From positions 62,058 to 126,057 of the forward strand of contig CAZHTF010000002.1 of the NCBI GenBank assembly GCA_964535305.1: a DNA stretch of 64,000 bases, in the 5' to 3' direction. The position numbers and the translations under genes are program-made. The notes under the pieces are model-generated. The model was given only the letters and a program-made list of their open reading frames with translations. It made no database searches and was not told the DNA's origin. Source of the DNA: an uncultured Planctomycetales bacterium. GTDB taxonomy: Bacteria > Planctomycetota > Phycisphaerae > UBA1845 > Fen-1342. Shown here one piece after another: positions 5,042 to 26,449 of the stretch (its first letter is position 1; each line of letters starts with the position of its first letter).

Positions 5042-5076
5042 TCGTACACAGTCCCGCGGCTAGCCCCCGGGGCAAA

Positions 5077-5316: not shown

Positions 5317-5342
5317 GCAGGTTCCTCGGGCCCACCTGCTGA

Positions 5343-7466: not shown

Positions 7467-7472
7467 CTTCGC

Positions 7473-8354: not shown

Positions 8355-8579
8355 ATACGCTCCGCGCCAACACCTCCAGTATCCGCGATTTGTAGCGAAA
8401 TGGGAACCAAGCCACGGGAGCCCGGCCGCGAACGGCCCGCCGCCCACCTGGACATTTCTCGTCCTACAACGCATTCTGCGCGGTGCGCGTGACCTGCGCG
8501 CAGCGCCTGCGAGTAATCCTGCATGCGAGCCTGCCGTAGCGCTCGCATCAGCCGAGTCGCTCGTCGTTAGGAGAAAATC

Positions 8580-10370: not shown

Positions 10371-10964
10371 TTAGATCAGCTCGACCTGCCAATACTCGAT
10401 TTCGATCGGCGTGGCGCGGCCGAAGATCGTGACGATGACGCGGACCATGCCCTTCTGCGTGTTGACTTCGTCCACCACGCCTTCGAAATTCTCGAACGGG
10501 CCTTCGCGTACCTTGACCTTGTCGCCCTTCTTGAAATTCACGTTTGCAAGCGTGGGGGCTTCTTCCGGCTTGACGGCGGCGGCCAGCATTTTCTCCACGT
10601 CGACCGGCTTCATGGGCGAGGGCTTGCCGCCCGAGCCGATGAAATCCCCGACGCCGCTGGTTTCCTTGATGACGAACCAGACGTTTTCTGGAACGCTGCC
10701 GTCGCGTTCGGTGGCCATCTCGACGAAGACATAGCCGGGATAGAGCTTGCGCATGTAAACCCGCGCGGCCCCCGCGCGGACGCGTTTTTCGCGCTGCGTG
10801 GGCACGAGGATGCGGCCGACGCGCTCCTCGAGATTCTCGATCTTGATCTTGCGCTCGAGCGCGTCGCGGACCTGGTCTTCGCGGTTGGAAGCGACCCGCA
10901 GCACGTACCAGTGCATCCCGGGGCGGGTTGAGAGATCGCCGGTGCTGGAATCGGTCGCGGTCAT
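10371..10964 (-). CDS. nusG: transcription termination/antitermination factor NusG
   Basis: The NGN start is HWYVLRVASNREDQV. The KOW region is KKGDKVKVREGPFENFEGVVDEV...VRVIVTIFGRATPIEIEYWQVE. It directly follows secE. Confidence 0.9.
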   Translation of the reverse strand: MTATDSSTGDLSTRPGMHWYVLRVASNREDQVRDALERKIKIENLEERVGRILVPTQREKRVRAGAARVYMRKLYPGYVFVEMATERDGSVPENVWFVIKETSGVGDFIGSGGKPSPMKPVDVEKMLAAAVKPEEAPTLANVNFKKGDKVKVREGPFENFEGVVDEVNTQKGMVRVIVTIFGRATPIEIEYWQVELI

Positions 10965-11555
10965 TCAGCTGGCTCCATCACCGCCGCCGAACATGTATCC
11001 GAGCACGCTGCCGACCCGCAGGACGCCGATGCCATCGAAGAAGAGCATGAACGCGAGGTCAACCAGGAAGAGGATCGTGCCCAGCAGCAGGACGGTGATG
11101 ATGACCACGCGCGTCGCGCCGAAGACTTCGCGGCGTGTGGACCAGCTCACCTTCTTCATCTCGTGTTCGGTCGCGATCAGGAATTCGACGAAGCCGCGGT
11201 GCTGGCCGACGTAATGGAAGATCAAGTAGCTGAGCCCCGCCAGCACGGCGACCGGGATCAGCATCCGCAGCCAGAGGCTGTCGGCGATGAAGGCGAAGCG
11301 GCGCAACTGGTCATGCAGGAAGCTGGCGGCCGCCAGCGCGATCAGCGCCGCGCCGACCGCAGTGCACCAGCGCACGGTGGCGCCTTGGCCGGGCAGGTAG
11401 AGCTGGAAGGGCTGGCCAGCCGGTTTGCGTGCGAGCGCGCGGCCGCCGGAGGGGCCGGGCAAAGCGCCCGCGGCGCCGTCGGTGTGCGTGGCTTCGGTGT
11501 CGTCGTCCTTTTCGGAGCTCAACACCGCGCCTCCTTTTTGATCGCGTTTCGACAT
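10965..11555 (-). CDS. secE: preprotein translocase subunit SecE (3-TM form with charged N-terminal extension)
   Basis: The conserved C-terminal segment is FLIATEHEMKKVSWSTRREVFGATRVVIITVLLLG. The gene holds the canonical position between tRNA-Trp and nusG. Confidence 0.8.
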   Translation of the reverse strand: MSKRDQKGGAVLSSEKDDDTEATHTDGAAGALPGPSGGRALARKPAGQPFQLYLPGQGATVRWCTAVGAALIALAAASFLHDQLRRFAFIADSLWLRMLIPVAVLAGLSYLIFHYVGQHRGFVEFLIATEHEMKKVSWSTRREVFGATRVVIITVLLLGTILFLVDLAFMLFFDGIGVLRVGSVLGYMFGGGDGAS

Positions 11556-11607
11556 TGCGGCTCCAGCTCGCGGGATCGGACGCCGCTCGTCCCGCCCGGT
11601 GGATCAA

Positions 11608-11680
11608 CAGGAGCGGAGGGAGTCGAACCCCCAACCTGCTGATTTGGAATCAGCTGCTCTGCCAATTGAGCTACGCTCCT
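11608..11680 (-). tRNA. tRNA-Trp (anticodon CCA)
   Basis: I folded the cloverleaf by hand. The acceptor is AGGAGCG/CGCTCCT, the D stem GCTC/GAGC and the anticodon stem GCTGA/TCAGC with loop TTCCAAA. The T arm is GGGGG-TTCGACT-CCCTC. No CCA end is encoded. Confidence 0.9.
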
Positions 11681-11702
11681 TCGCGTGCCGGTCAGGCGGC
11701 GG

Positions 11703-11870
11703 CTACTTGCGCTTGATCTTGTGGAGCGTGCGCTTGCGCAACCGCGGGCTGTATTTCATCAACTGGATCTTGGGTACGCCGCCGACGACGTTGATCGTCG
11801 TGCGGTAGTTGAGATCGCCGGTCTCGCCGCATTGCAGCCAGACCCACTCGCGTTTCTGCGCCTTGGCCAT
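11703..11870 (-). CDS. rpmG: 50S ribosomal protein L33 (55 aa; below the ORF-track cutoff)
   Basis: My translation is MAKAQKREWVWLQCGETGDLNYRTTINVVGGVPKIQLMKYSPRLRKRTLHKIKRK. It has the L33 C-terminal pattern KY.P..RKRTLHK. The position between tuf and tRNA-Trp is canonical. Confidence 0.85.
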   Translation of the reverse strand: MAKAQKREWVWLQCGETGDLNYRTTINVVGGVPKIQLMKYSPRLRKRTLHKIKRK

Positions 11871-11960
11871 GAGCCACCAATCCGATCCGCGACGCTCCGG
11901 CCGACCCGCCGCGCGAACGCATCCGCGTTCGGCGTGAATCAGCGCGCCGCCGCGCGGCTG

Positions 11961-13193
<1,233 letters not shown>

Positions 13194-13323
13194 TCGATGC
13201 TCTCCGATGCCCACCGGCGGTTGTCGCGCCGGGAGTGACCCGAGCGGTCACGTTCCACTCGCAAGCCCGATGTTCGCCCGATTCATTCCGTTCCGTACTG
13301 CACCCAGACCGCGACGCCCACAA

Positions 13324-13395
<72 letters not shown>

Positions 13396-13475: not shown

Positions 13476-13503
13476 ATTGTATAAGCGGCCGATTCCTTGT
13501 CAA
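13476..13503 (-). promoter_or_regulatory. sigma70-like promoter for the tRNA-Thr/tuf transcription unit
   Basis: On the minus strand it reads TTGACA, a 16-nt spacer, then TACAAT. It lies about 80 nt upstream of the tRNA-Thr 5' end. Confidence 0.5.
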
Positions 13504-13640
13504 AAGCAAAAATCAGCACGCCAGCTCCGCCGATGCGCCGCGGAGACATTCGCGCAACCAGCAGCACGCCCGCTGGTTATACTAGGAAAAGCAAGGAACG
13601 CGGCGTTCGCAGCGGCCCGCCGCGCCAATCGGGAGGCACC

Positions 13641-14138
13641 GTGTCGCTGGCTGACCTGCCGCATCGATTCCGCGATTCAACCAGCGACTGGCGTAGCCGG
13701 CTTCGCACCTGGCGCAGCGACGTGCAAGCCGACCCCAGCCTGCTCTGGCGAACACCCGCAATCCGAATCACGCTCTGGATCCTCTTCGGCGGGCTGCTCT
13801 ACTGGTCCGTCGCAAGCGGCGTGTCGACGATCTCCGGCGGCTTTGACGGTGACGCACAGCGCGAACGAACCGCCACGCTTTTCGTCGCCTGCACCGAGCC
13901 CGCCTGCCTGCATGCCGCCACCGTCACGCGGCCGATCTCATTCCGCGAGTGGCCGCTGACCTGCCAACGTTGTGGGAAAGCCAGCGTGCAGCGCGGCAAG
14001 CCCTGCGGCGATTGCCGCCGCTGGTTCGCGCCGGCAGACGCAGCGTGTCCGCATTGCGCCGCAGCCGCGAAGTTGCGGAAGCCCATCGAAAAGCCGCGCC
14101 GCTCGACCGATCCGGACGACGCCGAGGATGATTGGTAG
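13641..14138 (+). CDS. single-TM protein with Cys-rich (zinc-ribbon-like) C-terminal domain
   Basis: GGGAGG lies 4 nt before the GTG at 13641. The TM helix is ITLWILFGGLLYWSVA. The Cys pairs are CTEPAC, CQRC, CGDC and CPHC. The start is uncertain (the track ORF begins at 13497). Confidence 0.5.
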   Translation: MSLADLPHRFRDSTSDWRSRLRTWRSDVQADPSLLWRTPAIRITLWILFGGLLYWSVASGVSTISGGFDGDAQRERTATLFVACTEPACLHAATVTRPISFREWPLTCQRCGKASVQRGKPCGDCRRWFAPADAACPHCAAAAKLRKPIEKPRRSTDPDDAEDDW

Positions 14139-14247: not shown

Positions 14248-15222
14248 TCACGCGGCGGGCGGCTCGAAAACCCGCAGTAGAATCTCCGTCGAATCCGCAG
14301 CCAATCGCGCCTGCCAGAGCGTCACGCGCTGCTGCGCTGCAAGATCCGTCAGCTCGGATTCGTCGAGCACCATCGCAGCGGTGGATAGTGCGTCTGCACA
14401 GGCGGCGCTCGGCGCAAGTGCCCACGCCCCGACGAATTCCACCGCCGCGACGCCGCTGCGCGGATCGATGATGTGCGGGCCATGCAGCGCTCGGCCCGAG
14501 CCGCCCAGCGCGGCATCGCGCAGCACGACATGCCCCAGAACCGCGGCCGGATCCAGCGGGTTTCGCAGCGCGACGCGCCAGCCGGCAGCGGCGCCGCTCG
14601 GCGCGCCGAGCGCGCGCACTGTACTGTCGCCGGAGCTGAGCAGCGCCGCGCGGATCGACCAATCCGTCAGCAACTGCAAGCCGCGGTCGACGGCAAAGCC
14701 CTTGCCAATCGCGCCCAGGTCGAGCTGCACGCCAGCCGCTTCGATCGTGACGCTGCGGGCCGCCGCGTCGATCCGCACGGCGTGCATCATGCCGATCGGT
14801 GCCGTTGTCGCCGATCCGCGCTGGCCTGCATCGCGATCGCCGACGCCATCCGCGCCGCGTTGAGTGAGGTCAACGGCCGCGCCGCGCTGCGTCAGCCCGC
14901 CGACGCTGACATCAAACGCGCCGCGCGTCACCTGGGTCAATCGCGCGGCGAGTTGCAGACACTCGAGCACATCTGGGCCGACGCGCGTCGGTTCGCCGAC
15001 GCAGGCACGATTGATTCTCGAAATGTCGCTATGCGGCACATAGCGGCTCAGCTCCTGCTCGAGCCGATCGACCTCCTCAAACGCGGCCCGCGCGGCGCTT
15101 GCGGCGTACTCTGCCTGCTCGTCGGCGATCAGCAACCGCCAGGTGCACGCCATCGCGTCATGCGTGAACGCCTGCAGCCCGTGCGGCGCAGGCTCATACG
15201 CGATCGCCGGCGGGTTGCTCAC
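14248..15222 (-). CDS. apbE: FAD:protein FMN transferase (ApbE family)
   Basis: ApbE-like motifs are AMACTW (equivalent to AMGT), FDVSVGG, LDLGAIGKGFAVDR, SSGDS and HIIDPRSG. I chose the GTG at 15220-15222, which forms a GTGA overlap with the upstream gene's stop. Confidence 0.8.
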   Translation of the reverse strand: MSNPPAIAYEPAPHGLQAFTHDAMACTWRLLIADEQAEYAASAARAAFEEVDRLEQELSRYVPHSDISRINRACVGEPTRVGPDVLECLQLAARLTQVTRGAFDVSVGGLTQRGAAVDLTQRGADGVGDRDAGQRGSATTAPIGMMHAVRIDAAARSVTIEAAGVQLDLGAIGKGFAVDRGLQLLTDWSIRAALLSSGDSTVRALGAPSGAAAGWRVALRNPLDPAAVLGHVVLRDAALGGSGRALHGPHIIDPRSGVAAVEFVGAWALAPSAACADALSTAAMVLDESELTDLAAQQRVTLWQARLAADSTEILLRVFEPPAA

Positions 15223-16784
15223 GGAGCCGCTTCCTGCTCGCTGAGAACGAACGCTTCGTACAAACCGCGCTCGACCCACACGCTGGCGCGCACGTCCGGC
15301 CGCAGGCTGTAGACAAACTCCAAGTAGCCCGCCTCGGGCAGGTGCGCGGCTTCCAGCGCCAGCTCAGGAAACACCACCAACAGCGGCGCTGGCCGCAGCT
15401 CGTCCGCGTGCGCCCAGTAGCCGACGCGCTCCAGCCGCCGCAGGTACCAGGGCAGCGGCCACGGGTCATGCGCCAGCACCTGCACGAGCAGCGGCGGTCC
15501 GCCAGGCGCGGTGCGCTGGTATTCGCGGGCGAGGCGCTCGACCCAGGCGCCCAGGTCGCGCACGCCGCCCAGTGCGTGTGCATAGGCGTACGGATTGCGC
15601 GGGTCCGCGGCGAAGCGTGTGTTGCTCGCGCGGGCCAGCAGCCCCAGGTGCGTGCCCGCCGCCAGCAACGCGGCCGTCGCCAGCGTGCGGATTTTCCAAT
15701 CTGGCCGCTGCACGACGCGCGCCAGCGCGACGCCCGCGAGCAGGCTCAGCCCATGCAGGAATCCCAGGCTGCACCAGGGTGTCTTGTACGGAATCGCAGC
15801 GTAGCACGCGATCAGTAGCAACGTGTACAGCGCCATGAAGCGCGCCAGAAGAGCGCCCGCGTCGGCCCGCGGCGTGAATCGCCAGAGGCTGAGCGCCGCC
15901 CCGGCCAGGCCCGTGAGCAGCAGCGGTGCTTCGGTCCAGATGGGTCCGGGCGCGTCGTACGTCCAGGTCAGCAGCGCCAGGTAATAGTACCAGGGGTGCG
16001 CGTGAGCGCCGTCGCCATCGGCACGCTGCAGATAGTGGAAATACGTCGCGATCGAATCCCACGGTCCGCGCGCGTGGCTGAAGAATGCCGAGAAGAGCGT
16101 GACGGATACGACCGCGGCCAGCGCCAGTCCGATGCACACGTCGCGCAGTGCGGCGGATCGCGTGCGCGCGGGGAACACCGCCGCCGCGCCGCCGGGCAAC
16201 CAGCGCGTGATTGCGCAGGCCGCCGCCATGCTAGCGATCACGATCAAACATGTTTCTTTGGTCGCGTGCAGACAGCCGAGCGCCAGCCCGCCCGCGGCGC
16301 ACCAGGCCCAGTGCCCGTCGCGCAGCCAGCGCCACACACAGGCGATCAGCGCGAACGAGAAGAACACCAGCAGCGATTCGTGGATGTAGTAGCAGGCGTA
16401 GTAGCTGCTCGCCGGCGAGACGGAATAAAGTCCGACCGCGACCAGCGTTGCCACCCGTCCGAGCTCAAGCGTGAGCAGCAGCGTCAGGCACAGCGTACCC
16501 AGGCAGAACATCGCCGGGACGACACGCAGGGCTGCCTCGTCGAGCTGTGCGATCGAGCGCGCCGCGCTGCAGCGCGCCAGCGGCAGCGTGAAGTAATACA
16601 GCGTCGGCCCATGGTATTCGTGTGGATCGTAGACGTAGCGGCCGCTCTGCAGCAGCAGGTCGAGCTTGGCGGCGTGCACCGCCTCGTCCGTGTGCATCGG
16701 CCGCTCGCGCAGCGCCGGCAGCCGCAGCCACGCCGCGAGCAACAGGATCCCCGAAAACAGCAGCGCGAAACTGCGGCCGCTCAT
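15219..16784 (-). CDS. TIGR03663 / Agl23-like GT-C-type integral membrane protein
   Basis: The 521-aa polytopic protein carries the family hallmarks as I recall them: an N-terminal DE dipeptide (HTDEAVHA) and HGP (YDPHEYHGPTLYY). ATGA overlap with the discoidin gene at 16781-16784. Confidence 0.7.
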   Translation of the reverse strand: MSGRSFALLFSGILLLAAWLRLPALRERPMHTDEAVHAAKLDLLLQSGRYVYDPHEYHGPTLYYFTLPLARCSAARSIAQLDEAALRVVPAMFCLGTLCLTLLLTLELGRVATLVAVGLYSVSPASSYYACYYIHESLLVFFSFALIACVWRWLRDGHWAWCAAGGLALGCLHATKETCLIVIASMAAACAITRWLPGGAAAVFPARTRSAALRDVCIGLALAAVVSVTLFSAFFSHARGPWDSIATYFHYLQRADGDGAHAHPWYYYLALLTWTYDAPGPIWTEAPLLLTGLAGAALSLWRFTPRADAGALLARFMALYTLLLIACYAAIPYKTPWCSLGFLHGLSLLAGVALARVVQRPDWKIRTLATAALLAAGTHLGLLARASNTRFAADPRNPYAYAHALGGVRDLGAWVERLAREYQRTAPGGPPLLVQVLAHDPWPLPWYLRRLERVGYWAHADELRPAPLLVVFPELALEAAHLPEAGYLEFVYSLRPDVRASVWVERGLYEAFVLSEQEAAP

Positions 16785-17512
16785 TCCTTCTCAGGCACGC
16801 CGTAGATCTCGACCTCGACGTAATGGTTTTGGTCGTCGGCGGTGCTGCCGCGGCTGTAGAGCCGCACGTAGCGGCCGATGGCCTCTTTGGCGTCGAGCAG
16901 GCGACCTTCGTGCGACTCCCAGAATTCCTTCTCCGAGCCGACGCCCATGCGGGCGGAATTGTCGTGATCGTTGCTGTAGAGCGTGCGGACGTCCTTCTCG
17001 AACTTCGGATCGTCGCTGACCTGAATGATCACATCGTGGTAGACTCGGGCATTCTGGTGATAGCGCCACACCAGCAGCGCGTAAATGCGGGCCCGCTGCT
17101 GCAGATCGATCTGCACCCACTGCAGACCGGGCCCGAGCTCGACATAGCTGCCGTCCGCCGCTTCCTTGTCTTCGTCGGTCACCAGCTTCAGGCTGCCGAT
17201 GATCGGCTCCGGGTCGCTGCTGCTGACGGGTTTGCCGGCGGCGAGGTTCTTCACGCCGCGCGGCGCCAGGAAATCCGGCCGCGGGCCGCTCCGCGGTTTT
17301 TCGAGATTCGTCCCGCGCGGCGCGTCTTTGGGCGTTCCGCGAAATGCGGGCTTGGGCAGCTTGAATTCGAGCGGAACAAGTCCGTCGCCGACGGCCGAAC
17401 GCGATGCCGCGGCGTCCTGGGCCAGCGCCGGAGTGAGCAGCGCCAGCGTGGAGCTGCTGAGCAGCGCAGTCAGCATGCGCGTGACGCCGATTCGGACGCT
17501 TGCTGCGATCAT
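16781..17512 (-). CDS. secreted discoidin (F5/8 type C) domain protein
   Basis: The signal peptide is MIAASVRIGVTRMLTALLSSSTLALLTPALA. The discoidin-like core runs GKPVSSS...YVELGPGLQWVQIDLQQRARIYALLVW...GRYVRLYSRGS...YVEVEIYG. The ATG at 17512 lies 1 nt after the upstream stop. Confidence 0.8.
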   Translation of the reverse strand: MIAASVRIGVTRMLTALLSSSTLALLTPALAQDAAASRSAVGDGLVPLEFKLPKPAFRGTPKDAPRGTNLEKPRSGPRPDFLAPRGVKNLAAGKPVSSSDPEPIIGSLKLVTDEDKEAADGSYVELGPGLQWVQIDLQQRARIYALLVWRYHQNARVYHDVIIQVSDDPKFEKDVRTLYSNDHDNSARMGVGSEKEFWESHEGRLLDAKEAIGRYVRLYSRGSTADDQNHYVEVEIYGVPEKE

Positions 17513-17513
17513 G

Positions 17514-18053
17514 CTAGCTCCTCGCGCTGATACGCCGAGATGCAGCCAGGTACACATGCAATCCGCTCAGCACCAGCAGCACCAGGCCGCTGTAGCGGTG
17601 CAGCGTGATCAGCCGCACCTGTTCAGCATAGCCGAAGCTTGAAGACATCGCGGCCATCATCGAGCCGCCACTCAGCAGCGCCGCGAGCAGCGCCGTCCAG
17701 AAAACCAGCTTCTCGCTCGGCCAGAAGCCGCTGAACATGCCGAACCGACAGCGCCCGCCCCAGATCAGCCCGGCAAGCATGGACGCGAGCAGGAACAGCG
17801 GCGCGGCTGCCACGTGCAGCAGCAGCGGCCAGCCCGCCAGCCCATCGGCCAGCGCGCCGTTCAGACCGCTGCCGCCCAGCACGATTACGCTCAGGCCCAG
17901 CAGCCAATACACGCACCACGCCGCCGCTCCATCTCGCCGCGGACCGGGCTGGGCTTTTCCCGCGCCAGATGTGGCCCGATGCGCGATGATGACCAGCAGC
18001 AGCAGACCGGCGGCTGCATAAATCGCGGTCTGGAACAGCTCGCGCTCGTTCAT
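17514..18053 (-). CDS. 4-TM membrane protein with intramembrane His residues (possible b-type haem subunit)
   Basis: It starts at MNERELF, with an ATGA overlap to the cytochrome stop at 18050-18053. Only the C-terminal 179 aa of track ORF 17514..18806 look protein-like. His residues sit in helices: IIAHRA, LLLHVAAAP, TLHRYSG and LSGLHVYL. Confidence 0.65.
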   Translation of the reverse strand: MNERELFQTAIYAAAGLLLLVIIAHRATSGAGKAQPGPRRDGAAAWCVYWLLGLSVIVLGGSGLNGALADGLAGWPLLLHVAAAPLFLLASMLAGLIWGGRCRFGMFSGFWPSEKLVFWTALLAALLSGGSMMAAMSSSFGYAEQVRLITLHRYSGLVLLVLSGLHVYLAASRRISARS

Positions 18054-19969
18054 CGCGGCTGCTCCGCGCCGAAGCTCTCGGAGAGCCCGCGCAGGCCGGC
18101 GAGCGCGTACGCCAGCAGCGTGAGCGCCAGCACGCCGACACTCACCCAGCCGATCCAGATCAGCGGCGTTCGAAACGCGAACGCGCGGCCCAGGGCGCCG
18201 GCCAGGGCCGGGTCGCTCGTGTGCAGCTCGAACATGCGGGTCGGTCCGCCGGGCGCGTCGCGCATGTCGGCGGGAATCACGGACCCAAAGTAAATCGGGG
18301 CGTCCGCGCTGTGACAATCCGCGCAGCCGCGCGCGCCCAGCGACTGCGCCGCCGGCCGCACATCGTGCGCCAGCGACCAGCGATAGGCGGCGGCGCCGGG
18401 TTCGGCGGTGACTTGCAGCCGCCCGTCCCCGCCGAGCTGGTACAAGCGCCCGTCGCGGACATAGACGGCCGGGCCACCATCGCCGGCCAGTTGCTTGAGC
18501 AGCGCGGAGATCTCGGCGTCTGCCAGTGGTGCGACCGGCTCGCCGGCGCGCGGCTTGGCCCGCGTCATGACCTTGTTTGCCGCGGCCTGGAGCGCAGCGG
18601 GCGCAATTGCCTCCAAGTAATCCGCGCGCAGCCGGGCCCAGTACGCCGGCCACATCTGCCGGAACGGCGCGATGCGGCCATCCAGGTCGCGGGCGAAGAC
18701 CGGGGCAACGATCAGCGGCGGCGAGCGCTCGTCGCGCTCCTTGCTGGCGATACCCAGACCATGCGCCATCGAGGTCTGCACGCGCAGTGTGTTGCCCACC
18801 GGCCACGGCCCGCTATGACACGCGGTGCAGCTCAGCTTCTCAAAGTGCAGCGGCGGCAGTCCGCGATGCTGCGGATGCGGCGCGGCGCACAAGCCGCCGC
18901 GCGGGCCGAGGTGGCAGCCTTCGCAACTGTACGCATCGCGGGCGCCGTCGCCCATCAGCCGCGCCTCGCCGCGGAAGCCGCGCACCATGTCGTGATCAAT
19001 GCCATGCCGATGGCAATCGCTGCAGGAAAGCCCGGCGGAGATGTGCACGTCGCCGGCGTGCCGCTCAGGCGCCAGCGACACATCGCCGATCCACTTCTGC
19101 GAATGGCAGAACTCGCAGCGATCCGCGGCGGGTCGGCGGGTGATGTCGAAAAAGACGCGCTCGTCGGCGTCAAAGCGATTGGGGTCGTACACGACCTTCG
19201 GCAGGCTCGCGGCGCCGCTCGCCGGCGCCAGCGGGTCAAACTCCTCCGGCACCGCCTTCACCTCGCCGCGGATCGCGGCCAATCCGAGGGCGGCGGTCGC
19301 GGACCAGCGCAGGTTCTGAGCGGCGATCTGCCGGGCCGCCTCGGCCGCGTCGTACGCCGCGCTCTGGCTGTGGCAGGTCATGCAGTCGATTTCGCGCGTG
19401 CCTGCGAGCTGCCAGCGGGCTTTTTCGGAGCTGGCTTCGGTTTCCGCCACCGTTAGCTCGGCCTCTCCGCCGCCGGGCATGTGCCGCCCGAAGCGCTGTG
19501 TCATCTGCCAGGCCGACAGCGCCGCGCCCGGCAGGCTCGTGCCGAACCAGCCGCGATGAGACATTGGAAGCTGCAGCCCGAGCCGCGGCTCAAACAGAAT
19601 CCATGGCTCAGAGGGTCGCCCGGGCGGGATTTCCGAGCGCGTCGCGTTGAAGTGCCACCCGCTGCTTATCCGCGCGTATTCATGACACTTCCCGCAGGTC
19701 ACGCGCGGCGAATAAGGCTGCGGATCCGCGTCGGTCGGACTGATCGCGCGCCCGTCGGCGTCATAGAGCGTCAGCCGATGCACGTACGCCGATCCACTGT
19801 CGCTGCGAAGCTGCCGGGCCGCAGTAGCTGATGCCGCTGGCGGCGCGTCCGGCGCTTGCGCCTGGCAAATCGCCGTGAACAGCGCCAGCAGCGGCGCCAG
19901 GGCGGCGGACAGCGGGAAATCCAAGCTGCGCCGGCCGGTCATGCGGACCCTTGGCACCTGCGGCGACAC
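18050..19969 (-). CDS. membrane-anchored heptahaem c-type cytochrome
   Basis: There are seven CxxCH motifs: CGKCH, CMTCH, CEFCH, CSDCH, CEGCH, CTACH and CADCH. It has an N-terminal signal sequence and a C-terminal TM helix LIWIGWVSVGVLALTLLAYALAG. An alternative ATG start is at 19942. Confidence 0.9.
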   Translation of the reverse strand: MSPQVPRVRMTGRRSLDFPLSAALAPLLALFTAICQAQAPDAPPAASATAARQLRSDSGSAYVHRLTLYDADGRAISPTDADPQPYSPRVTCGKCHEYARISSGWHFNATRSEIPPGRPSEPWILFEPRLGLQLPMSHRGWFGTSLPGAALSAWQMTQRFGRHMPGGGEAELTVAETEASSEKARWQLAGTREIDCMTCHSQSAAYDAAEAARQIAAQNLRWSATAALGLAAIRGEVKAVPEEFDPLAPASGAASLPKVVYDPNRFDADERVFFDITRRPAADRCEFCHSQKWIGDVSLAPERHAGDVHISAGLSCSDCHRHGIDHDMVRGFRGEARLMGDGARDAYSCEGCHLGPRGGLCAAPHPQHRGLPPLHFEKLSCTACHSGPWPVGNTLRVQTSMAHGLGIASKERDERSPPLIVAPVFARDLDGRIAPFRQMWPAYWARLRADYLEAIAPAALQAAANKVMTRAKPRAGEPVAPLADAEISALLKQLAGDGGPAVYVRDGRLYQLGGDGRLQVTAEPGAAAYRWSLAHDVRPAAQSLGARGCADCHSADAPIYFGSVIPADMRDAPGGPTRMFELHTSDPALAGALGRAFAFRTPLIWIGWVSVGVLALTLLAYALAGLRGLSESFGAEQPR

Positions 19970-19989
19970 ATATGAAGTACGCAGCGGTC

Positions 19990-20880
19990 TTACAGCTTGG
20001 TCGGCATCGTCGCCGGCGCGGTCGTCGGCGTGGGCGTCTGGGCTGGAGCCGGGGCGGGCGACTTCCCCGGAATCGGCGGGGCCGCGAAGGGCGGGGCCGC
20101 CACCGGCGTGATTGAGACCGTGCCGCCGCCGGGCAGCGTGCCGGTGATGGTCGGGGCCGGCGGGCGCATCCGCGTTACGGCCTTGTCATACGCGGCCTGC
20201 TGCTCCGCCGTCAGCGCCGCGCGGATGTCGTTCGAGAAGCGCTGCAACATCTCGGCCCGCTGCGGATCCTCGAGCGCGGCGACCTCATTCACCGTTCGCC
20301 GGAAGGTTTCCTTGGTGGTCTCGAGCGCCTTGGCCTGCTCCGGCGTCAGATTCAGGCCGCGCGCGATCCGCACGATGTCGACCGGGCGCAGGGCGCCGTC
20401 CGGGGCGCGCAGCAGCCGCGCCACGGTCTGCTCGTACGTGGCGCGTTGCGCCGGCGTCAGTGCAGAAACCAGGTCGCGCAGGAATTCCTCTTCGGCCCGC
20501 GCGCCAGGCGCCATCAGCCGCAACTGCTCATTGATCTGGTTTTTCTTCTGCTGATCCCCGGCCTGCTCGGCTGCCTGAAGCTCGGCATAAAGCGCCTTGA
20601 TCTCCTCGACACGCCGCTGCACAGCCTCCTGTTCCTGCTTGATATCGGAATCGAAGCGCGTGAACAGTCCCTCGACGTGCTTACTTTCCTCAGCGCTCAG
20701 CTCAAGCTGGCTGACGATGTAGCGCAGCTTCTCCTGACCCGCGAGCACACGCTGCGTCGTCTTGCGCGGCGGCGGCTGGCCCGGCCCGGCCGAAGGCTGA
20801 ACTGTGAGCTGGCCAATCGCTGTCAGCGGCGCGGCGAGCAGCAGCAGCGCCAGCGGTAGTCTCGAAATCACACGTCGCAT
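19990..20880 (-). CDS. periplasmic LTXXQ-repeat (Spy/CpxP-like) protein with Pro-rich tail
   Basis: The signal peptide is MRRVISRLPLALLLLAAPLTAIG. Repeated motifs are LSAEESK, LTPAQRATYEQ, LTPEQAKALE and LTAEQQAAYDK. GGAG lies 7 nt before the ATG at 20880. Confidence 0.75.
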   Translation of the reverse strand: MRRVISRLPLALLLLAAPLTAIGQLTVQPSAGPGQPPPRKTTQRVLAGQEKLRYIVSQLELSAEESKHVEGLFTRFDSDIKQEQEAVQRRVEEIKALYAELQAAEQAGDQQKKNQINEQLRLMAPGARAEEEFLRDLVSALTPAQRATYEQTVARLLRAPDGALRPVDIVRIARGLNLTPEQAKALETTKETFRRTVNEVAALEDPQRAEMLQRFSNDIRAALTAEQQAAYDKAVTRMRPPAPTITGTLPGGGTVSITPVAAPPFAAPPIPGKSPAPAPAQTPTPTTAPATMPTKL

Positions 20881-20901
20881 GCAAGATCTCCGTACCACAA
20901 G

Positions 20902-21164: not shown

Positions 21165-21265
21165 TTAACAATCCGAAGAAATTTCTATTGACGCCACATC
21201 GTCCCAACAATTATCGTGCGTTTCAGCGTTGTATCTGTTCCAAGTCTGTTACAACGAGCGTCAAG

Positions 21266-22270
21266 ATGTCGTCCGTTCGGCGAATCGCACAAAGCGCGGG
21301 CGTTTCGATCGCGACCGTCTCGCGCGTACTCAATAACAGCCCCGACGTCAGCATCCCGACGCGCGAAGCCGTGCTGTCTGTCGCAAACCGCGTGGGCTAC
21401 GCCCGCAGTCGCCTGCGCAAGGCCGCCGACAGCACCATCGGCTTCGTGCACACCGCCGTCCGAACACTCTCGCACGCATTCGACGCGGCGGTGTTGGACG
21501 GCATCGTGCGGGCGGCGGACGAAGCTCGGCACGATGTGCTGATCCTCTCGCTACCGCGCGACAGGCAGCAGAACGAGAGTTATCGCCAATATTTCCAGCG
21601 CAAGGGCGTCGGTGGCGTAATCCTGCGGACCACCGCAGCCACGCGGGACGTTTGCCGCGAGATCGCGGCGGACGGCTTCCCTCACGTTGTGATCAGCGAG
21701 CAGTTTGACGAGCCGTTCGTCAATTTTGTGGACGGCACCTCTGCGGATGAAAGCCGTCGCGCGGTGCAGTACCTAATCGGGCTGGGCCATACGCGGATCG
21801 CGTTTGCGATGCACAATGTTCCTGACCGCGACCATCTGGACCGTCTCGAAGGCTATCGGCGGGCGTTGCAGGCCGCCGGGATCGAGCCCGACGAGCGCGT
21901 GCTGTTTCGCCAGCCGGCGAACCTGGCCGGCGGCGCGACGGTTCTGACCATGGTCATGAACATGCCCGAGCGGCCGACGGCCCTGTTCTCAGCCGACCCG
22001 GCGCTGGCGATTGGCGCAATCAAGAAGGCGCACGAGTCGGGTGTGCGCATCCCGCAGGATCTTTCGATCGTCGGGTTCGACGACACCGACGTGCGCTTCA
22101 GCGTGCACCCGACGCTTACCGCCGTCTGCCAGGACGCGGTGGCGCTGGGCTACGAAGCGGCCCGCTGGATCACGCGCGGCGCGACCCGCGAGCCGCTGCG
22201 CAAGACGCTTCCAACGTTTTTCGAGGTGAACGGCTCGGTCGCGCCGCCTTGCGCCGCGGTCCGGCCCTGA
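21266..22270 (+). CDS. LacI-family transcriptional regulator
   Basis: The HTH region is MSSVRRIAQSAGVSIATVSRVLNNSPDVSIPTREAVLSVANRVGY. A periplasmic-binding-protein-like sugar-binding fold follows (IVGFDD). Confidence 0.9.
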   Translation: MSSVRRIAQSAGVSIATVSRVLNNSPDVSIPTREAVLSVANRVGYARSRLRKAADSTIGFVHTAVRTLSHAFDAAVLDGIVRAADEARHDVLILSLPRDRQQNESYRQYFQRKGVGGVILRTTAATRDVCREIAADGFPHVVISEQFDEPFVNFVDGTSADESRRAVQYLIGLGHTRIAFAMHNVPDRDHLDRLEGYRRALQAAGIEPDERVLFRQPANLAGGATVLTMVMNMPERPTALFSADPALAIGAIKKAHESGVRIPQDLSIVGFDDTDVRFSVHPTLTAVCQDAVALGYEAARWITRGATREPLRKTLPTFFEVNGSVAPPCAAVRP

Positions 22271-22298: not shown

Positions 22299-23372
22299 AT
22301 GTGCCGTTCCGCAACATGCCCTGATCGCGTACGAAAGCCCGGCGGCGCTGGGGCGTTCACGCTGATCGAGCTGCTGGTCGTGGTCGCGATCATCGCATTG
22401 CTGATCTCGATTCTCCTGCCTTCGCTGCAGGCGGCCCGCGAGCAAGCCAAGCTGGTCAAATGCCTGGCCAACATGCGCTCCGCCGCCCAGGCCACTGAGA
22501 ATTTCCGCAACGCGCGCGGCCGGGCGCAAATCGTGACCGACGAAGTTGGCCTGGCCTCCGCCGACCCGTCGCGTCAACGCTACTCCTACGGCGACGGCGG
22601 CGAGCTGATCTCGTGGCCGGTTGCGCTGGCGCAGGGCAACGGCATGTCGTTCCGCAACAATTGGGACTGGGGCGTGCGGGCGCGCGACTACGTCGAAGCC
22701 CAGTCGCGCGAGTCGTTCATGAAAAAAGACCTGGAGTGGCTGGTGTGCCCGTCGGACCGCGTCCGCATCGCCACGCCTTACTATGTGCGGAACAAAGGCG
22801 GCTCCAACGACGGGCTGCGCGGCGCCGGCGACCCTGGAAACCCGATCAGTAGCGCGCCGAACATGTCGTACTGGGGCTATCTCAGCTACGGCATCAACGA
22901 AGACCTGGTCGGGGCCGAAGTGGCCGAAAGCAACGGTTTCCCCGCGTGCTTCCGCGTCACCTGGCAGGGCAACAATTGCATCGAATGCCGTGGCGAATTC
23001 GGCTACCCGCCGACCTCACCGTGTGGCGGCTCGCGCGACGGCCGACGGCTGCGCGGCGACTTGGACAAGATCTATCTCCCCGCGGATGTCGGCCTGATCT
23101 TCGAGGCCGGTCGCGACGACGACACGCAGTCCATCACCGGCTTTGCGAACCTGGTCATTAGCGCGCAGGCGCAGGGGCCTTACCTGGGCGATTTCCAGCA
23201 GCAGCACAGCGCCCGCATGCCCACCACGCGCCATCCGAAGGGCGCGATCGACGTGCTGTTCGCCGACATGCACGGCGAGAAGGTCACCCCGACCAAGTTC
23301 GGCCCGAACGGACTTCCCACGGAGTACTCGCCGCGTGTGCGAGTGTCGCCTTACATGCCTGGTTGTGACTAG
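22299..23372 (+). CDS. prepilin-type N-terminal cleavage/methylation protein (DUF1559-like pseudopilin)
   Basis: GGAGGA lies 6 nt before the ATG. The leader and helix are GGAGAFTLIELLVVVAIIALLISILLPSL. The C-terminal HPKGAIDVLFADMHG is a variant of the H-X9-DG motif. Confidence 0.85.
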   Translation: MCRSATCPDRVRKPGGAGAFTLIELLVVVAIIALLISILLPSLQAAREQAKLVKCLANMRSAAQATENFRNARGRAQIVTDEVGLASADPSRQRYSYGDGGELISWPVALAQGNGMSFRNNWDWGVRARDYVEAQSRESFMKKDLEWLVCPSDRVRIATPYYVRNKGGSNDGLRGAGDPGNPISSAPNMSYWGYLSYGINEDLVGAEVAESNGFPACFRVTWQGNNCIECRGEFGYPPTSPCGGSRDGRRLRGDLDKIYLPADVGLIFEAGRDDDTQSITGFANLVISAQAQGPYLGDFQQQHSARMPTTRHPKGAIDVLFADMHGEKVTPTKFGPNGLPTEYSPRVRVSPYMPGCD

Positions 23373-23414
23373 CGCCGGCGCAAGTGTCGGCCGAGAAAAC
23401 GGAGGAGGAGTGCG

Positions 23415-24089
23415 ATGATGAAGCGAAGTGGACGACTTGTTTGTGTGCTGTCACTGGCGACGATGCTGAGCAGCGCGTCGCTCTCGCAGGCGGATGTCGC
23501 CGTCACCGTGGATCCGAACCAGACCTGGCTCGGGTTCATGAACGTGTTTGACCTGCCGGTGGGCAGCGGCGGGTACGTCTTCGGCAGCCCCTGGGGCACC
23601 GGCGACCTGGCCGCGGCGTTCAACGGCCCGAACCTGCGGCTGAGCCCGAACACGAATACATACAATGCATCCGATCCATTCTGGGTCCAGCCCAACGGCG
23701 CCGGCAACAAGTGGATGAATGCCAACATGTACGTCGAGAACCCGGCCCTGGTCGGCCAGACGATCGTGTTCTCCGGCCAGACATTGCTGAACAACTTCGC
23801 GCCCGGCTATACCTCGCGCGCGTTCATCAAGGTCCTGGACCCGGCGCAGGGCTTCGCGACCATCCTCGAGACGTATGCACCGCTGGTCTCGGGCCAGAAC
23901 TTCTCGCTGAGCCTCGCCGTTCCGAACACGGCCGGCCTGCTGCCGCAGTACGGTTTCGTGACCGACGGCGCCAACGCCAACCCGGCCACGGTCGATGCGC
24001 TGGGCGGGGCGATCGTCGGCCCGATTCCCGAACCGTCGAGTTTGCTGCTGGCGTCGCTGGCCGGCATCGTCTTCCTTCGTCGCCGCTAA
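23415..24089 (+). CDS. PEP-CTERM sorting-domain secreted protein
   Basis: GGAGGAGG lies upstream of the start. It has a signal peptide. The C-terminus PIPEPSSLLLASLAGIVFLRRR shows PEP, a TM helix and a basic tail. Confidence 0.8.
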   Translation: MMKRSGRLVCVLSLATMLSSASLSQADVAVTVDPNQTWLGFMNVFDLPVGSGGYVFGSPWGTGDLAAAFNGPNLRLSPNTNTYNASDPFWVQPNGAGNKWMNANMYVENPALVGQTIVFSGQTLLNNFAPGYTSRAFIKVLDPAQGFATILETYAPLVSGQNFSLSLAVPNTAGLLPQYGFVTDGANANPATVDALGGAIVGPIPEPSSLLLASLAGIVFLRRR

Positions 24090-24143
24090 GTACAGCGGCC
24101 GCGAGATGCGGTTGCATCTGCAGTTGGGTGACGTGACGCTCAA

Positions 24144-24175
24144 AGCGTCAGGCGGCCTTCGGGCCGCCTGACGCT
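24144..24175 (+). terminator. strong stem-loop (14-bp perfect stem, TTCG loop) downstream of the PEP-CTERM gene
   Basis: The structure is AGCGTCAGGCGGCC-ttcg-GGCCGCCTGACGCT. No clear U tract follows, so intrinsic-terminator function is inferred only. Confidence 0.45.
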
Positions 24176-24205
24176 TCGGGCTGAGCGCGGGGCGCAGGGG
24201 TCAAA

Positions 24206-26449
24206 ATGCCGAAGTCGAGTCCGATTCCGTCGCCGTTCGCGATCATCGCCACACTGGCCGCGCTCCTGCTCGCGCCTCCCGCCTCGGCGCAGCTAACCAA
24301 TGGCGGTTTTGATAGCGCTGGCGGATCGCTGCTGGGGTGGACGCCCTTTAACAACGGCGCGGGCAACGTGCTGTCGTCGACAACCACGCCGCGCTCGAAC
24401 CCGAGCTGCGCGAAGGTGTTCGGCGGCTTCAACGGCAATCCGAATTACTCGGGGCTGTATCAGAGTGTCGCGACCAGCGCGGGGCAAAATTGGCAGTTAT
24501 CGGCGCATGTGCGTCACAACGCCGGCGACAGCCTGCAGGGCACTTCAAACAAGCTGGTGATGAAAATCGAGTTCTATCGCGTCGTCGGCGGCGCGTATGG
24601 CACGGCGGACATGCTGAGCGAATCGCAGGTCGATGCGCTCACCGCGGCCTCGCCGACCGGCACCTGGCTGCCCGTAAGCTGGCAGGCGCTGGCGCCGCCG
24701 CAAGCGGTCGAAGCGCGGGTCAGCTTTGTTTTCGTGCAGGTCAGTTCCGCGGGCGGCGCGGCGCTGCTGGATGATGTGAGTTTCACCTCCAATACGACCC
24801 CGGCAAGCTGGGCGCTGATCTGGAGCGACGAATTCGACGGTCCGTCGGTTGACCCGCTGCGCTGGCGGATCGAAGACCGCCATCTGATCAAGAACGCCGA
24901 GCTGCAGTACTACGCCCCGGATGAAGTCTACATTCAGAACGGGACGCTCGTACTCCGCAGCCGCAACCGCGTCTATTCCGGCTTCGACAGCAACGGCAAC
25001 TGGGGAACGTACAACTACACCTCCGGCTTGGTCGAAAGCCAGGGACGCTTCGGCATGGCGTACGGACGCATCGAGGTGCGCGCCAAGCTGCCTTCCACGC
25101 GCGGGCTTTGGCCGGCCCACTGGATGCTCCCGACCTCCGGCCTTTGGCCGCCAGAGATCGACATCATGGAGCTGCTCGGGCACGAGCCGACGCGCATCTA
25201 CATGACGCATCACTGGGGCTCCTGGCCAAACGTGCAGAGCAACGGCGGGACGTACGTCGGACCGAACTATTCGCAAGGATTCCACACGTTTGCGGTGGAA
25301 TGGTCTCCAGCCCGGATCGACTGGTTCATCGATGGCGTGCAGCGTTTCAGCAGCAGCGTCTCGATTCCGGCCGAGCCGTTCTACATCATTCTGAACACCG
25401 CGGTGGGCGGGAATTTCCCGGGGAATCCGGATGGATCGACCGTCTTCCCGCAATATCACGAAATTGACTACGTGCGCGTCTACGTACCGGCCGACCCGGG
25501 CGCAGCGACGGTCAGCGGCGTCGACACGACGCGCCGCGGGGCCCTGGCGGACGGCACGCTGAGCAGCGCTGAGTACGCCGTCGCGTTCAGCGGGATCAAC
25601 AGCGGCTTTGGCGACCGGCTGGGAGCGCAGTCGCGGCTGTGGCTGGATTCGTCGGCGGACGGCCGGCTGAACCTGGCGATCGAGTCGCGCACGGCATGGC
25701 CAGCGCCCAGCGCGTACGGCGCGGTGATCTACGTCGATTCGATCCCGGGCGGCTTTGCGTCGACGTACGAGCTGCGCGATGTCGCCGATCGCTCGCGACG
25801 GCTCGCGTCGGGCAAGGGCAGCGCCGGGCAGCGTTCGGATCTGTACTTCGCGCCGGGCTTCCGGGCCGATTTTGCGATTGTGCTCGAAGACACGGCCGCC
25901 ACCGTCTACCGCCTCGACCGCGCGGCGCACACGCGGCTGAACGCGGCCGGCTTGAACGCTAGCAGCGACCTGCTGGGCGGCCGCGAGCTGGCGTATCAGA
26001 GTGATGCCGGCACGCTGCGCGAGCTGCATTTGCCAGCGAGCCTGCTGGGGCTGAGCGGCAGCGCGCCGGCGAACGCGCCGCGGCTGCTCGCGACGCTCTT
26101 GAATGGCGACAACGCATTTCGCACGAACGAATTTGTTGGCGCCGCGCCGGGCAATGCCTGGGATGCGTTCAATCCTGGCGCGGGGCCGGCGCTGCTCAAG
26201 AGCGGCGATTTCGCGAGCTTTACGCTCACGCCGCCCAGCAACTGCGGCGCGGGTTGCGGCTCAGCTTCGAGCAGTGCGGATTTTGACTTTGACTGTGACG
26301 TGGATTCGGCCGATCTCGGCGTGCTGCTCGCGTTCTATCGCACGACGGAGCTGGTGAACCGCGATCACGGCGACGCCGACGGAGACGGCGACGTTGACGA
26401 AGCCGATCTCGGCCTGTTGTTGAGTTTTTATGCGGCAGCCTGCCCGTGA
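24206..26449 (+). CDS. GH16 beta-glucanase (laminarinase-like) with N-terminal CBM4/9-like module, an unknown middle domain and a C-terminal dockerin-like tag
   Basis: It has a signal peptide. The GH16 catalytic motif is EIDIMEL, set in GLWPAHWMLP...WPPEIDIMELLG. WSDEFDG and FHTFAVEW are also present. The tail ends GDGDVDEADLGLLLSFYAAACP. Confidence 0.9.
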   Translation: MPKSSPIPSPFAIIATLAALLLAPPASAQLTNGGFDSAGGSLLGWTPFNNGAGNVLSSTTTPRSNPSCAKVFGGFNGNPNYSGLYQSVATSAGQNWQLSAHVRHNAGDSLQGTSNKLVMKIEFYRVVGGAYGTADMLSESQVDALTAASPTGTWLPVSWQALAPPQAVEARVSFVFVQVSSAGGAALLDDVSFTSNTTPASWALIWSDEFDGPSVDPLRWRIEDRHLIKNAELQYYAPDEVYIQNGTLVLRSRNRVYSGFDSNGNWGTYNYTSGLVESQGRFGMAYGRIEVRAKLPSTRGLWPAHWMLPTSGLWPPEIDIMELLGHEPTRIYMTHHWGSWPNVQSNGGTYVGPNYSQGFHTFAVEWSPARIDWFIDGVQRFSSSVSIPAEPFYIILNTAVGGNFPGNPDGSTVFPQYHEIDYVRVYVPADPGAATVSGVDTTRRGALADGTLSSAEYAVAFSGINSGFGDRLGAQSRLWLDSSADGRLNLAIESRTAWPAPSAYGAVIYVDSIPGGFASTYELRDVADRSRRLASGKGSAGQRSDLYFAPGFRADFAIVLEDTAATVYRLDRAAHTRLNAAGLNASSDLLGGRELAYQSDAGTLRELHLPASLLGLSGSAPANAPRLLATLLNGDNAFRTNEFVGAAPGNAWDAFNPGAGPALLKSGDFASFTLTPPSNCGAGCGSASSSADFDFDCDVDSADLGVLLAFYRTTELVNRDHGDADGDGDVDEADLGLLLSFYAAACP

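Follow-up and report, generated by a model that had tools for sequence, protein, structure and literature searches.

A recurrent five-gene cluster coding for a heptahaem cytochrome c, an FdnI-type cytochrome b, a discoidin-like protein, an Agl23-like membrane protein and ApbE

On a contig from an uncultured Planctomycetales bacterium, six closely spaced genes bring together a multihaem cytochrome, a membrane subunit, a secreted protein of predicted lectin-like fold, a glycosyltransferase-like membrane protein and a flavin transferase. Is this block one unit, and if so, what does it do? We examined these questions in a stretch of 64,000 nucleotides, called the window here (assembly GCA_964535305.1, contig CAZHTF010000002.1, positions 62,058 to 126,057 of the forward strand). 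Five of the six genes recur in the same order in many bacteria and very probably work together. In most other genomes examined, the gene directly upstream of the cytochrome gene codes for a dehydrogenase of the Gfo/Idh/MocA family (Gfo) with a twin-arginine translocation (Tat) signal. Our tentative answer is that the two haem proteins may form a quinone-linked module that re-oxidizes such dehydrogenases in the periplasm.

Layout of the block and conservation of five genes

The block spans positions 14248-20898 of the window. Its genes, listed from the 5' end, are as follows.

19990-20898, minus strand: LTXXQ gene; secreted, Spy/CpxP-like protein of 302 amino acids (aa)
18050-19969, minus strand: heptahaem cytochrome c gene; 639 aa (630 aa from ATG)
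17514-18053, minus strand: gene for a membrane subunit assigned to FdnI/HydC-type cytochrome b; 179 aa
16781-17512, minus strand: gene for a secreted protein with a predicted discoidin/CBM32 fold; 243 aa
15219-16784, minus strand: gene for a polytopic glycosyltransferase C-type (GT-C) protein of family TIGR03663 (Agl23-like); 521 aa
14248-15222, minus strand: ApbE gene, FAD:protein FMN transferase family (FAD, flavin adenine dinucleotide; FMN, flavin mononucleotide); 324 aa

The stop codon of the LTXXQ gene is separated from the GTG start of the cytochrome gene by 20 nt, or by 47 nt if a downstream ATG, used in the database gene call P0001, is the start. The cytochrome and b-subunit genes share an ATGA overlap (18050-18053), the b-subunit and discoidin genes are joined as TAG-C-ATG with a 1-nt gap (17512-17516), and the last two junctions are an ATGA overlap (discoidin/GT-C, 16781-16784) and a GTGA overlap (GT-C/ApbE, 15219-15222). 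A first-pass annotation, made from the letters alone, had described six tightly spaced minus-strand genes at these positions, and the reading frames and overlaps agree with it; its domain calls (ApbE, TIGR03663, LTXXQ, discoidin and multihaem cytochrome) were borne out by profile searches and structure comparison. Nothing inside the operon exceeded shuffle expectation in a scan for promoters and terminators. An Rfam scan gave only two tRNAs, with no FMN or other riboswitch, including upstream of the operon.

A scan of species-representative genomes turned up at least 582 stretches with relatives of the cytochrome. The best 80 of these stretches, with 10-kb flanks, and four loci on metagenome contigs made up the sample, in which genes were counted by tblastn and hidden Markov models (HMMs). 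Counts for the discoidin, GT-C, ApbE, LTXXQ and family 2 glycosyltransferase (GT2) genes refer to the 63 loci in which the cytochrome is followed by 6 kb or more of sequence. The b-subunit gene was detected by HMM in 80 of the 85 loci with the cytochrome. A discoidin gene was present in 46 of the 63 loci, a GT-C gene in 42 and an ApbE gene in 42; all three occurred together in 39. Where a locus held all three, they were contiguous and collinear in 39 of 41 cases. The carriers are labelled Phycisphaerae, Planctomycetales, Pirellulales, Gimesia, Sumerlaeia/BRC1, KSB1, Omnitrophota and Calditrichota, and further metagenome-assembled genomes (MAGs) are labelled Kiritimatiellota, Verrucomicrobia or Bacteroidota-type; the module recurs across at least seven bacterial phyla. 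The first-pass annotation had read the tight spacing as a sign of co-production, and the order cytochrome, b subunit, discoidin, GT-C, ApbE is indeed kept across phyla, for five genes of the six. The arrangement is therefore not a chance juxtaposition, and we have little doubt that the five genes constitute one conserved functional module.

The sixth gene was found in only 1 of the 63 comparable loci, that of the present window, by tblastn. The conserved unit therefore consists of five genes and not of the six first proposed, and the LTXXQ gene, judged by its distribution, is a lineage-specific addition outside the module. Its product passes the PF07813 cut-off marginally (26.3 bits against 24.3) and has a signal peptide and three motifs, LTPAQ, LTPEQ and LTAEQ.

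A gene that usually lies beside that of the cytochrome is absent from the window. A Gfo orthologue was present in 59 of 72 other loci and lay directly upstream of the cytochrome in 56 of the 72, with a gap below 400 bp in 90%. Judged by gene adjacency, Gfo is the most consistent candidate for a periplasmic partner. A Gimesia maris MAG (L048) is among the carriers of Gfo-cytochrome. A twin-arginine motif was found in 59 of 62 Gfo sequences, and the orthologues retain the Rossmann GxGxxG, EK and D..H motifs. The nearest solved relatives in a Protein Data Bank (PDB) search were DgpA, GFOR and a glucuronide 3-dehydrogenase; NCBIfam matches, all scoring far below the equivalog cut-offs, included inositol 2-dehydrogenase and the family of the BT_2158 glycoside 3-dehydrogenase. 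At least eight loci carry a second Tat-exported Gfo, related to BT_2158, after ApbE. A small GT2 gene, usually divergent from Gfo, was found in 29 of the 63 loci, and its product matches models for dolichyl-phosphate hexose transferase, AglJ and PpgS. Genes of sugar catabolism often occur within or near the clusters (NCS1 permease, FGGY kinase, xylose-isomerase-like protein, altronate dehydratase and a cytoplasmic Gfo).

The window has a GT2 gene of its own away from the block (7473-8474, minus strand, AglJ/PpgS-like), directly upstream of a gene for a 707-aa PMT_2-type GT-C (5343-7466; the pair spans 5343-8474). This GT2 is just 29-35% identical to the cluster GT2; it is therefore a paralogue, distinct from the cluster GT2 that the window lacks.

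Several loci depart from the common order. Three have Gfo-cytochrome-b-ApbE without discoidin or GT-C (L051, L063 and L068), two have the order Gfo-ApbE-cytochrome (L024 and L035), and in two the discoidin-GT-C-ApbE trio is on the opposite strand (L032 and L045). In L063, the Gfo-cytochrome-b-ApbE genes are flanked by genes for two paralogous Tat-signal proteins of about 320-330 aa without a Pfam family (7119-8078 and 15037-16041 of that locus), and the cluster is also adjoined by an altronate dehydratase gene and a sulfatase-like gene.

A heptahaem cytochrome c paired with an FdnI-type cytochrome b

The window cytochrome has seven CxxCH motifs, an AxA-type signal peptide, a periplasmic domain and a single C-terminal transmembrane (TM) anchor, in accord with the first-pass description of its haem motifs and anchor. 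All 84 orthologues have seven haem motifs: 77 with seven CxxCH, and 7 with six CxxCH and one variant motif. Nine His residues are invariant in the family and available as distal haem ligands. More than 1000 cytochrome homologues were scored. Pfam gave weak cytochrome c7/c3 matches, and among PDB sequences only weak NrfA matches were found, over one haem pair (6e-5).

The membrane subunit had been read as a protein of four TM helices. Five hydrophobic segments are predicted in the window copy, an extra N-terminal helix followed by a four-helix FdnI core. The window copy stays below the PF01292 cut-off (19.2 bits against 30.1), and 12 of 16 orthologues match this family, the best with E = 1.3e-18. 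A profile of the family matches Escherichia coli FdnI (1kqf_C) over the whole length of the four-helix core (E = 4.3e-7). By profile and ligand pattern, the four-helix core most probably belongs with the cytochrome b proteins of the FdnI/HydC type. His80 and His152 of the window protein correspond to FdnI His57 and His155, the ligands of haem bP, and are 97-100% conserved. The equivalent of FdnI His169, in TM4 beside the menaquinone site, is 79% conserved; that of His18 in TM1 is lost, and a His is found in the extra helix in 47% of the b subunits. One b haem is therefore well supported and the second is uncertain. Of the dihaem subunit that had been suggested, the haem bP ligands stand, and the haem bC pair is incomplete. 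In four loci (L003, L009, L039 and L059) the b subunit retains the C-terminal sequence GxVSxxWAKxHHPxWW, typical of formate dehydrogenase gamma subunits; this tail is gone from most other b subunits, the window copy included.

The pair is not without precedent. Proteins of the CbcL/MtoC/MtrH class (Geobacter, Dechloromonas and Rhodoferax), to which we liken it by architecture, also join a periplasmic multihaem cytochrome c to a HydC/FdnI-type cytochrome b. Members of the class, which is known from 15 phyla including Planctomycetes, carry 3-23 haems and 4-6 TM helices, and its CbcL-type proteins are inferred to be quinol oxidases or quinone reductases facing periplasmic partners (PMC6295460). 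Each member of the class is one polypeptide, whereas the window pair is encoded by two overlapping genes. In 9 of 84 orthologues, however, cytochrome and b subunit are fused into polypeptides of about 800 aa, in which the anchor helix leads directly into the four-helix FdnI core. Unlike the class, the b subunits of the window family have lost the TM1 haem ligand. The surroundings also differ: in place of the metal-respiration clusters of CbcL/MtoC/MtrH, the partners here are a Tat-exported Gfo, a CBM32-like protein, a GT-C and ApbE. With FdnI itself, the b subunits have the four-helix core and the haem bP ligands in common; unlike FdnI, the window protein lacks the His18 equivalent, has an extra N-terminal TM helix and is partnered with a multihaem cytochrome c instead of an iron-sulfur subunit.

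The discoidin-like protein, the GT-C, ApbE and the flanking genes

The discoidin-like protein scored below the Pfam cut-offs for F5/8 type C domains (20.5-21.4 bits against about 28), and no match to it was found among PDB sequences. An AlphaFold model (predicted local distance difference test [pLDDT] score 72.5) gave a confident beta-sandwich at residues 80-240. When this model was compared with known structures by Foldseek, CBM32, F-lectin and chitosan-binding modules were retrieved with a probability of 1.0 and target template-modelling scores of 0.7-0.78, so that at the level of the model the discoidin/CBM32 fold is confirmed. Tandem two-domain homologues (P0242, P0243 and P0246; 350-424 aa) exceed the Pfam F5/8 type C cut-offs, with 62 bits.

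This protein is the best-conserved member of the cluster, with 55-73% identity across phyla, and the family has invariant His/Asp/Asn/Trp clusters. The segment at about residues 50-80 (LPKPAFxGTP..NLE.PR.GPRP) is predicted to be disordered, yet it is invariant. In orthologues outside Phycisphaerae (L041, L059, L070 and L082), a lipobox (L..C) marks the protein as a tethered lipoprotein, and a long low-complexity Pro/Ala/Glu/Thr linker precedes the invariant LPKPxFxGTP; the window copy has an AxA-type signal in place of the lipobox. The protein is probably a structural or substrate-binding subunit. Because its gene immediately precedes those for GT-C and ApbE, we speculate that the N-terminal motif is a candidate glycosylation target. 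More than 7000 homologues were found, every one annotated as hypothetical; the family is thus very large, highly conserved and wholly unannotated.

The membership of the next protein in TIGR03663, and the DE and HGP hallmarks attributed to it, were upheld. It scored 157.3 bits against a cut-off of 126.25 and also matched the PMT family of Pfam, and the hallmark residues D33, E34, H58, G59 and P60 were invariant in 27 sequences. No match was found among PDB sequences. About 11 TM helices are predicted, and the C-terminal domain, some 135 aa long, is soluble by the same prediction. Positive-inside counting over 42 orthologues likewise favoured 11 TM helices with the C-terminal domain outside, with Lys plus Arg totals of 10.7 in the predicted-inside loops versus 3.0 in the short predicted-outside loops. 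In one orthologue (L025, about 4762-6663 of that locus), two extra TM helices are inserted between TM10 and TM11, and the parity is kept. In Haloarcula, the GT2 Agl22 and the TIGR03663 protein Agl23 cooperate on dolichyl-phosphate-hexose; Agl23 translocates lipid-linked oligosaccharides in vitro, and assays of TIGR03663 proteins are limited to this Haloarcula protein (PMC11182771). The orthologous clusters resemble that system in pairing a GT2 with a TIGR03663 GT-C. They differ from it in the bacterial host, the placement of the GT-C in a redox cluster and the recurrent fusion to ApbE, and the window lacks an orthologous GT2.

ApbE matched PF02424 with E = 2e-43 and 149 bits (cut-off 25.6) over 258 of 266 model positions. 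The motifs SGSG, HIIDPR[ST]G and ADALST are kept in the window protein and in 44 cluster orthologues; the active-site residues were assigned by motif, without structural superposition. The conserved active-site residues of the Vibrio cholerae enzyme are Ser241, His257 and Asp285, and some ApbE homologues show FAD hydrolase activity (PMC12052999). Neither a signal peptide nor a lipobox was found in the window protein, and a hydrophobic N-terminal 11-mer was found in 0 of its 120 closest homologues, in which the median N-terminal length was 24 residues. In many loci the reading frame closes 0-14 codons 5' of the start. Judging from these N termini, the clade is without a Sec or lipoprotein signal. 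The premise of the first-pass annotation, that this ApbE serves an extracytoplasmic acceptor, is therefore doubtful.

Other ApbE proteins without a signal are known: Klebsiella pneumoniae ApbE2 and the N-terminal ApbE domain of trypanosomatid fumarate reductase are signal-less or fused to their partner (PMC12052999). These act on an FMN-binding domain with the motif D..[ST]GA[ST], whereas the window cluster has no such domain or motif. A large survey of flavinylation retained a gene cluster only if one of four target gene classes had a predicted signal peptide or lipidation site (PMC8238504). Because of the signal-peptide filter, the signal-less clade is probably missing from that survey. The neighbouring substrate with [S/T]GA[S/T] that is expected in flavinylation-associated clusters (FMN_bind, DUF2271, DUF3570 or NqrB/RnfD; Meheust et al. 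2021) was not found among the conserved families of the 85 loci.

In some loci ApbE is fused to the C terminus of the GT-C. Such fusions were found in 4 of 42 loci and in 7 of 150 best representatives after clustering at 50% identity; all seven representatives were confirmed by Pfam, and none has a linker TM helix.

The genes around the block are of several kinds. On the 3' side of ApbE lies a conserved housekeeping block (tRNA-Thr, tuf, tRNA-Trp, secE and nusG; 10371-13395, minus strand), and a 213-aa open reading frame (ORF) convergent with the operon end (13497-14138, plus strand) codes for a zinc-ribbon-like CxxC...CxxC...CxxC protein without a Pfam match. On the other side, a LacI-family regulator gene (21188-22270, plus strand) is divergent from the LTXXQ gene across about 290 bp of intergenic DNA; it could place the operon under sugar-responsive control. 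Farther out, genes typical of Planctomycetota occupy 22299-26449 (plus strand): they code for an N-methyl/prepilin-type protein (22299-23372), a 224-aa protein that ends in a PEP-CTERM-like tail, PEPSSLLLASLAGIVFLRRR (23415-24089), and a secreted protein of 747 aa (24206-26449).

A possible role in glycoside oxidation, and the alternatives

What could unite these proteins? We propose, at somewhat less than an even chance, that a CbcL-like haem c/b quinone module re-oxidizes periplasmic NAD(P)-bound glycoside dehydrogenases and is accompanied by a CBM32-like subunit and by enzymes of glycosylation and flavinylation. The membrane-anchored heptahaem cytochrome c and the FdnI-type b subunit would exchange electrons with redox partners in the periplasm on one side and with the quinone pool on the other. 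The usual donor would be a Tat-exported Gfo/Idh/MocA protein, kin of GFOR, DgpA and BT2158, whose non-exchangeable NAD(P) would be re-oxidized by the haem module, and the oxidation of sugars or glycosides in the periplasm would thereby reach the respiratory chain. The CBM32-like protein may serve as a glycan-binding or docking subunit. The Agl23-like GT-C, together with a GT2 acting as polyprenyl-phosphate-sugar synthase in other genomes, would carry out a lipid-linked-sugar-dependent glycosylation, by analogy with Agl22/Agl23 (PMC11182771). The window itself would hold a reduced form of the module, without Gfo and without an orthologous GT2, in which a gene for a lineage-specific LTXXQ chaperone was gained in front. 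Hydride transfer from NAD(P)H to one-electron haem normally requires a flavin, which gives a rationale for ApbE in the cluster: covalent FMN could act as the two-electron/one-electron converter between NAD(P)H and haem. Gene layout, family memberships, synteny, fusions and the lack of export signals are observed directly; the direction of electron flow, the pairing of Gfo with the cytochrome and the targets of glycosylation and flavinylation belong to the proposal.

The general logic has precedents. In LacABC, FAD-GDH (FAD-dependent glucose dehydrogenase) and fructose dehydrogenase, a Tat-exported periplasmic sugar dehydrogenase delivers electrons to quinone by way of a multihaem cytochrome c associated with the membrane. 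Catalysis in these systems is by a GMC-type subunit that contains FAD, accompanied by a trihaem subunit; in the cluster, the dehydrogenase is of the NAD(P) type, and seven haems are combined with a separate b subunit. The glucoside 3-dehydrogenase LacABC is cytochrome c-dependent (PMC8121099). The Gfo of the cluster, which the window lacks, resembles Zymomonas GFOR, Bacteroides BT2158 and Alistipes AL3 in being a periplasmic Gfo/Idh/MocA protein with a Tat signal. For the known Tat-exported Gfo enzymes, whose NAD(P) is tightly bound, reduction of a second sugar is the presumed way of recycling NAD(P)H; they are not known to have a cytochrome partner, and how they are re-oxidized in vivo is stated to be open (PMC8121099; bioRxiv 10.1101/2024.03.25.586180). 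Liu et al. suggested that an unidentified second sugar takes up the hydride (PMC8121099), and Nasseri et al. named "specialized proteins, such as cytochromes" as alternative re-oxidants (bioRxiv 10.1101/2024.03.25.586180). An Alistipes fosmid, P1C11, with an operon for a Gfo-type glycoside 3-dehydrogenase is reported also to encode a GT2 and a GT39, a GT-C of the PMT family (bioRxiv 10.1101/2024.03.25.586180); this is possibly an echo of the association of Gfo, GT2 and GT-C in the cluster.

All components come from known families, and the proposed passage of electrons from a periplasmic dehydrogenase through a cytochrome to quinone follows a scheme that is already known. The new features are the NAD(P)-type Tat-exported donor, the CBM32-like subunit, the embedded Agl23-like GT-C and a signal-less ApbE that lacks an acceptor motif in its cluster and is recurrently fused to the GT-C. 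The first-pass annotation knew of no described complex of this combination, and no description of it was found, either under the combination or under TIGR03663, in the literature searched, which leaves most subscription journals outside its coverage.

Several results weigh against the proposed re-oxidation of Gfo. No Gfo was found in the window at E < 1 by tblastn with four Gfo orthologues, and 13 of the 72 other loci have none nearby; among these, L018 has the gene set of the window, and L020, L029, L040 and L081 read tgt-yajC-cytochrome-b-discoidin. Having a Gfo gene next to it is therefore not a prerequisite for the haem module. The cytochrome could not be modelled usefully: an AlphaFold model built on a 22-sequence alignment was discarded (pLDDT 45.6), and Foldseek returned nothing with it at E < 1. 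The role given to ApbE meets two further difficulties. One is the acceptor. Across 85 loci, no conserved D..[ST]G[AG][ST] site was found in the conserved families (cytochrome, b subunit, discoidin, GT-C, Gfo and GT2), nor did a column scan for [ST]G[AGSV][ST] in the cluster families give a conserved column. A Gfo site, ASGG[T/L/I/V], is variable among orthologues. The PASGAAS of the cytochrome, the closest candidate of the first-pass annotation, is unique to the window copy among 84 orthologues compared and was rejected as a conserved flavinylation site. In the cytoplasmic loops of the b subunit, where a conserved Ser or Thr was sought as flavin acceptor, there was none, only a Cys motif, RCRF, that is conserved in many. 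The earlier failure to see a convincing acceptor motif in the operon partners thus extends to the cluster families as a whole, and the flavin acceptor may lie elsewhere in the genome.

The other difficulty is topology. ApbE has no export signal, yet the fusions join it to a GT-C domain that is predicted to be periplasmic. From this we infer that either the topology call for the GT-C is wrong or ApbE works on both sides of the membrane. An amphipathic segment of the GT-C (residues 258-275) was tried as a twelfth TM helix, which would place the C-terminal domain in the cytoplasm, and was rejected: with a mean hydropathy of -0.2 it is too weakly hydrophobic to span the membrane, and the paradox therefore stands. 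Activity on both sides would be compatible only with substrates that fold in the cytoplasm and cross the membrane in the folded state, as Tat substrates such as Gfo do.

These results leave room for other explanations. The cytochrome c and b subunits could be a general quinol oxidase for extracellular or periplasmic acceptors such as metals or humic substances, like CbcL or ImcH, with the sugar-related neighbours incidental. The architecture of CbcL/MtoC/MtrH is matched, the 13 loci just described and the window do without Gfo, and many carriers are MAGs from sediment or anoxic habitats. Yet neither an outer-membrane conduit nor further periplasmic cytochrome genes were found in the loci examined (tblastn and ORF inspection), adjacency to Gfo in 56 of 72 loci across phyla is hard to see as incidental, and the CBM32-like protein, the GT-C and ApbE would be left without a role; we consider this explanation unlikely. 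Alternatively, independent modules may simply be neighbours: a redox pair with or without Gfo, an envelope-glycosylation unit (discoidin, GT-C and GT2), and an ApbE that serves an unrelated flavoprotein, such as NQR or RNF, encoded elsewhere in the genome. The parts do separate in some genomes. In L025, L032 and L045 the discoidin-GT-C-ApbE trio is either separated from the cytochrome or encoded on the other strand, ApbE accompanies Gfo-cytochrome-b without discoidin or GT-C in the three loci mentioned above, discoidin occurs without GT-C or ApbE in L015, L029, L040 and L081, and the cluster has yielded no acceptor motif. However, trio and cytochrome are together in 39 of 63 loci in several phyla, mostly with the trio directly downstream and overlapping, and ApbE tracks both parts, being fused to the GT-C and, in loci without a GT-C, remaining beside Gfo-cytochrome-b. 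Export would also be expected of an ApbE with a housekeeping role for NQR or RNF, and the window clade is not exported. We give this explanation a similarly small chance.

An explanation confined to ApbE, and compatible with the other alternatives, is that the enzyme, working with the Agl23-like protein, is a pyrophosphatase for FAD, traffics flavin or passes FMN to an acceptor other than a protein. It would suit the missing acceptor motif and export signal, the recurrent fusion to a GT-C/flippase-type protein, the FAD hydrolase activity of some ApbE homologues (PMC12052999) and the translocation of lipid-linked oligosaccharides by Agl23 (PMC11182771). Against it, the transferase Ser/His/Asp residues are conserved, ApbE is retained in the GT-C-less clusters (L051, L063 and L068), and a non-protein acceptor is without precedent; we regard it as quite improbable.

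The proposal of a Gfo-linked haem module can also be put in a stronger form, which we hold to be doubtful: the cluster would be a new entry point into respiration, in which Gfo is re-oxidized by a dedicated heptahaem c/FdnI-type b quinone reductase and the conversion from hydride to single electrons depends on a non-canonical flavinylation, lacking the [ST]GA[ST] motif, by a signal-less ApbE physically tied to the GT-C. In its most radical version, the flavin or a modified acceptor would be passed across the membrane through the GT-C/flippase, as in lipid-linked glycosylation. Such a hand-over would explain how ApbE can be without an export signal and yet be fused to a predicted periplasmic tail. 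In any case, a signal-less ApbE clade without a recognizable acceptor, recurrently fused to a GT-C, points either to a new flavinylation motif or to a new use of ApbE chemistry.

Periplasmic dehydrogenases of the Gfo type start a recently recognized, broad-specificity breakdown of glycans through 3-keto-glycosides, and cytochromes have been suggested as their partners but never identified (PMC8121099; bioRxiv 10.1101/2024.03.25.586180). The c/b module, which is encoded directly downstream of Gfo in most genomes examined from several phyla, is a concrete, testable candidate for this re-oxidation. If it has this function, extracytoplasmic sugar oxidation would feed respiration directly in abundant polysaccharide degraders, the Planctomycetota and their relatives.

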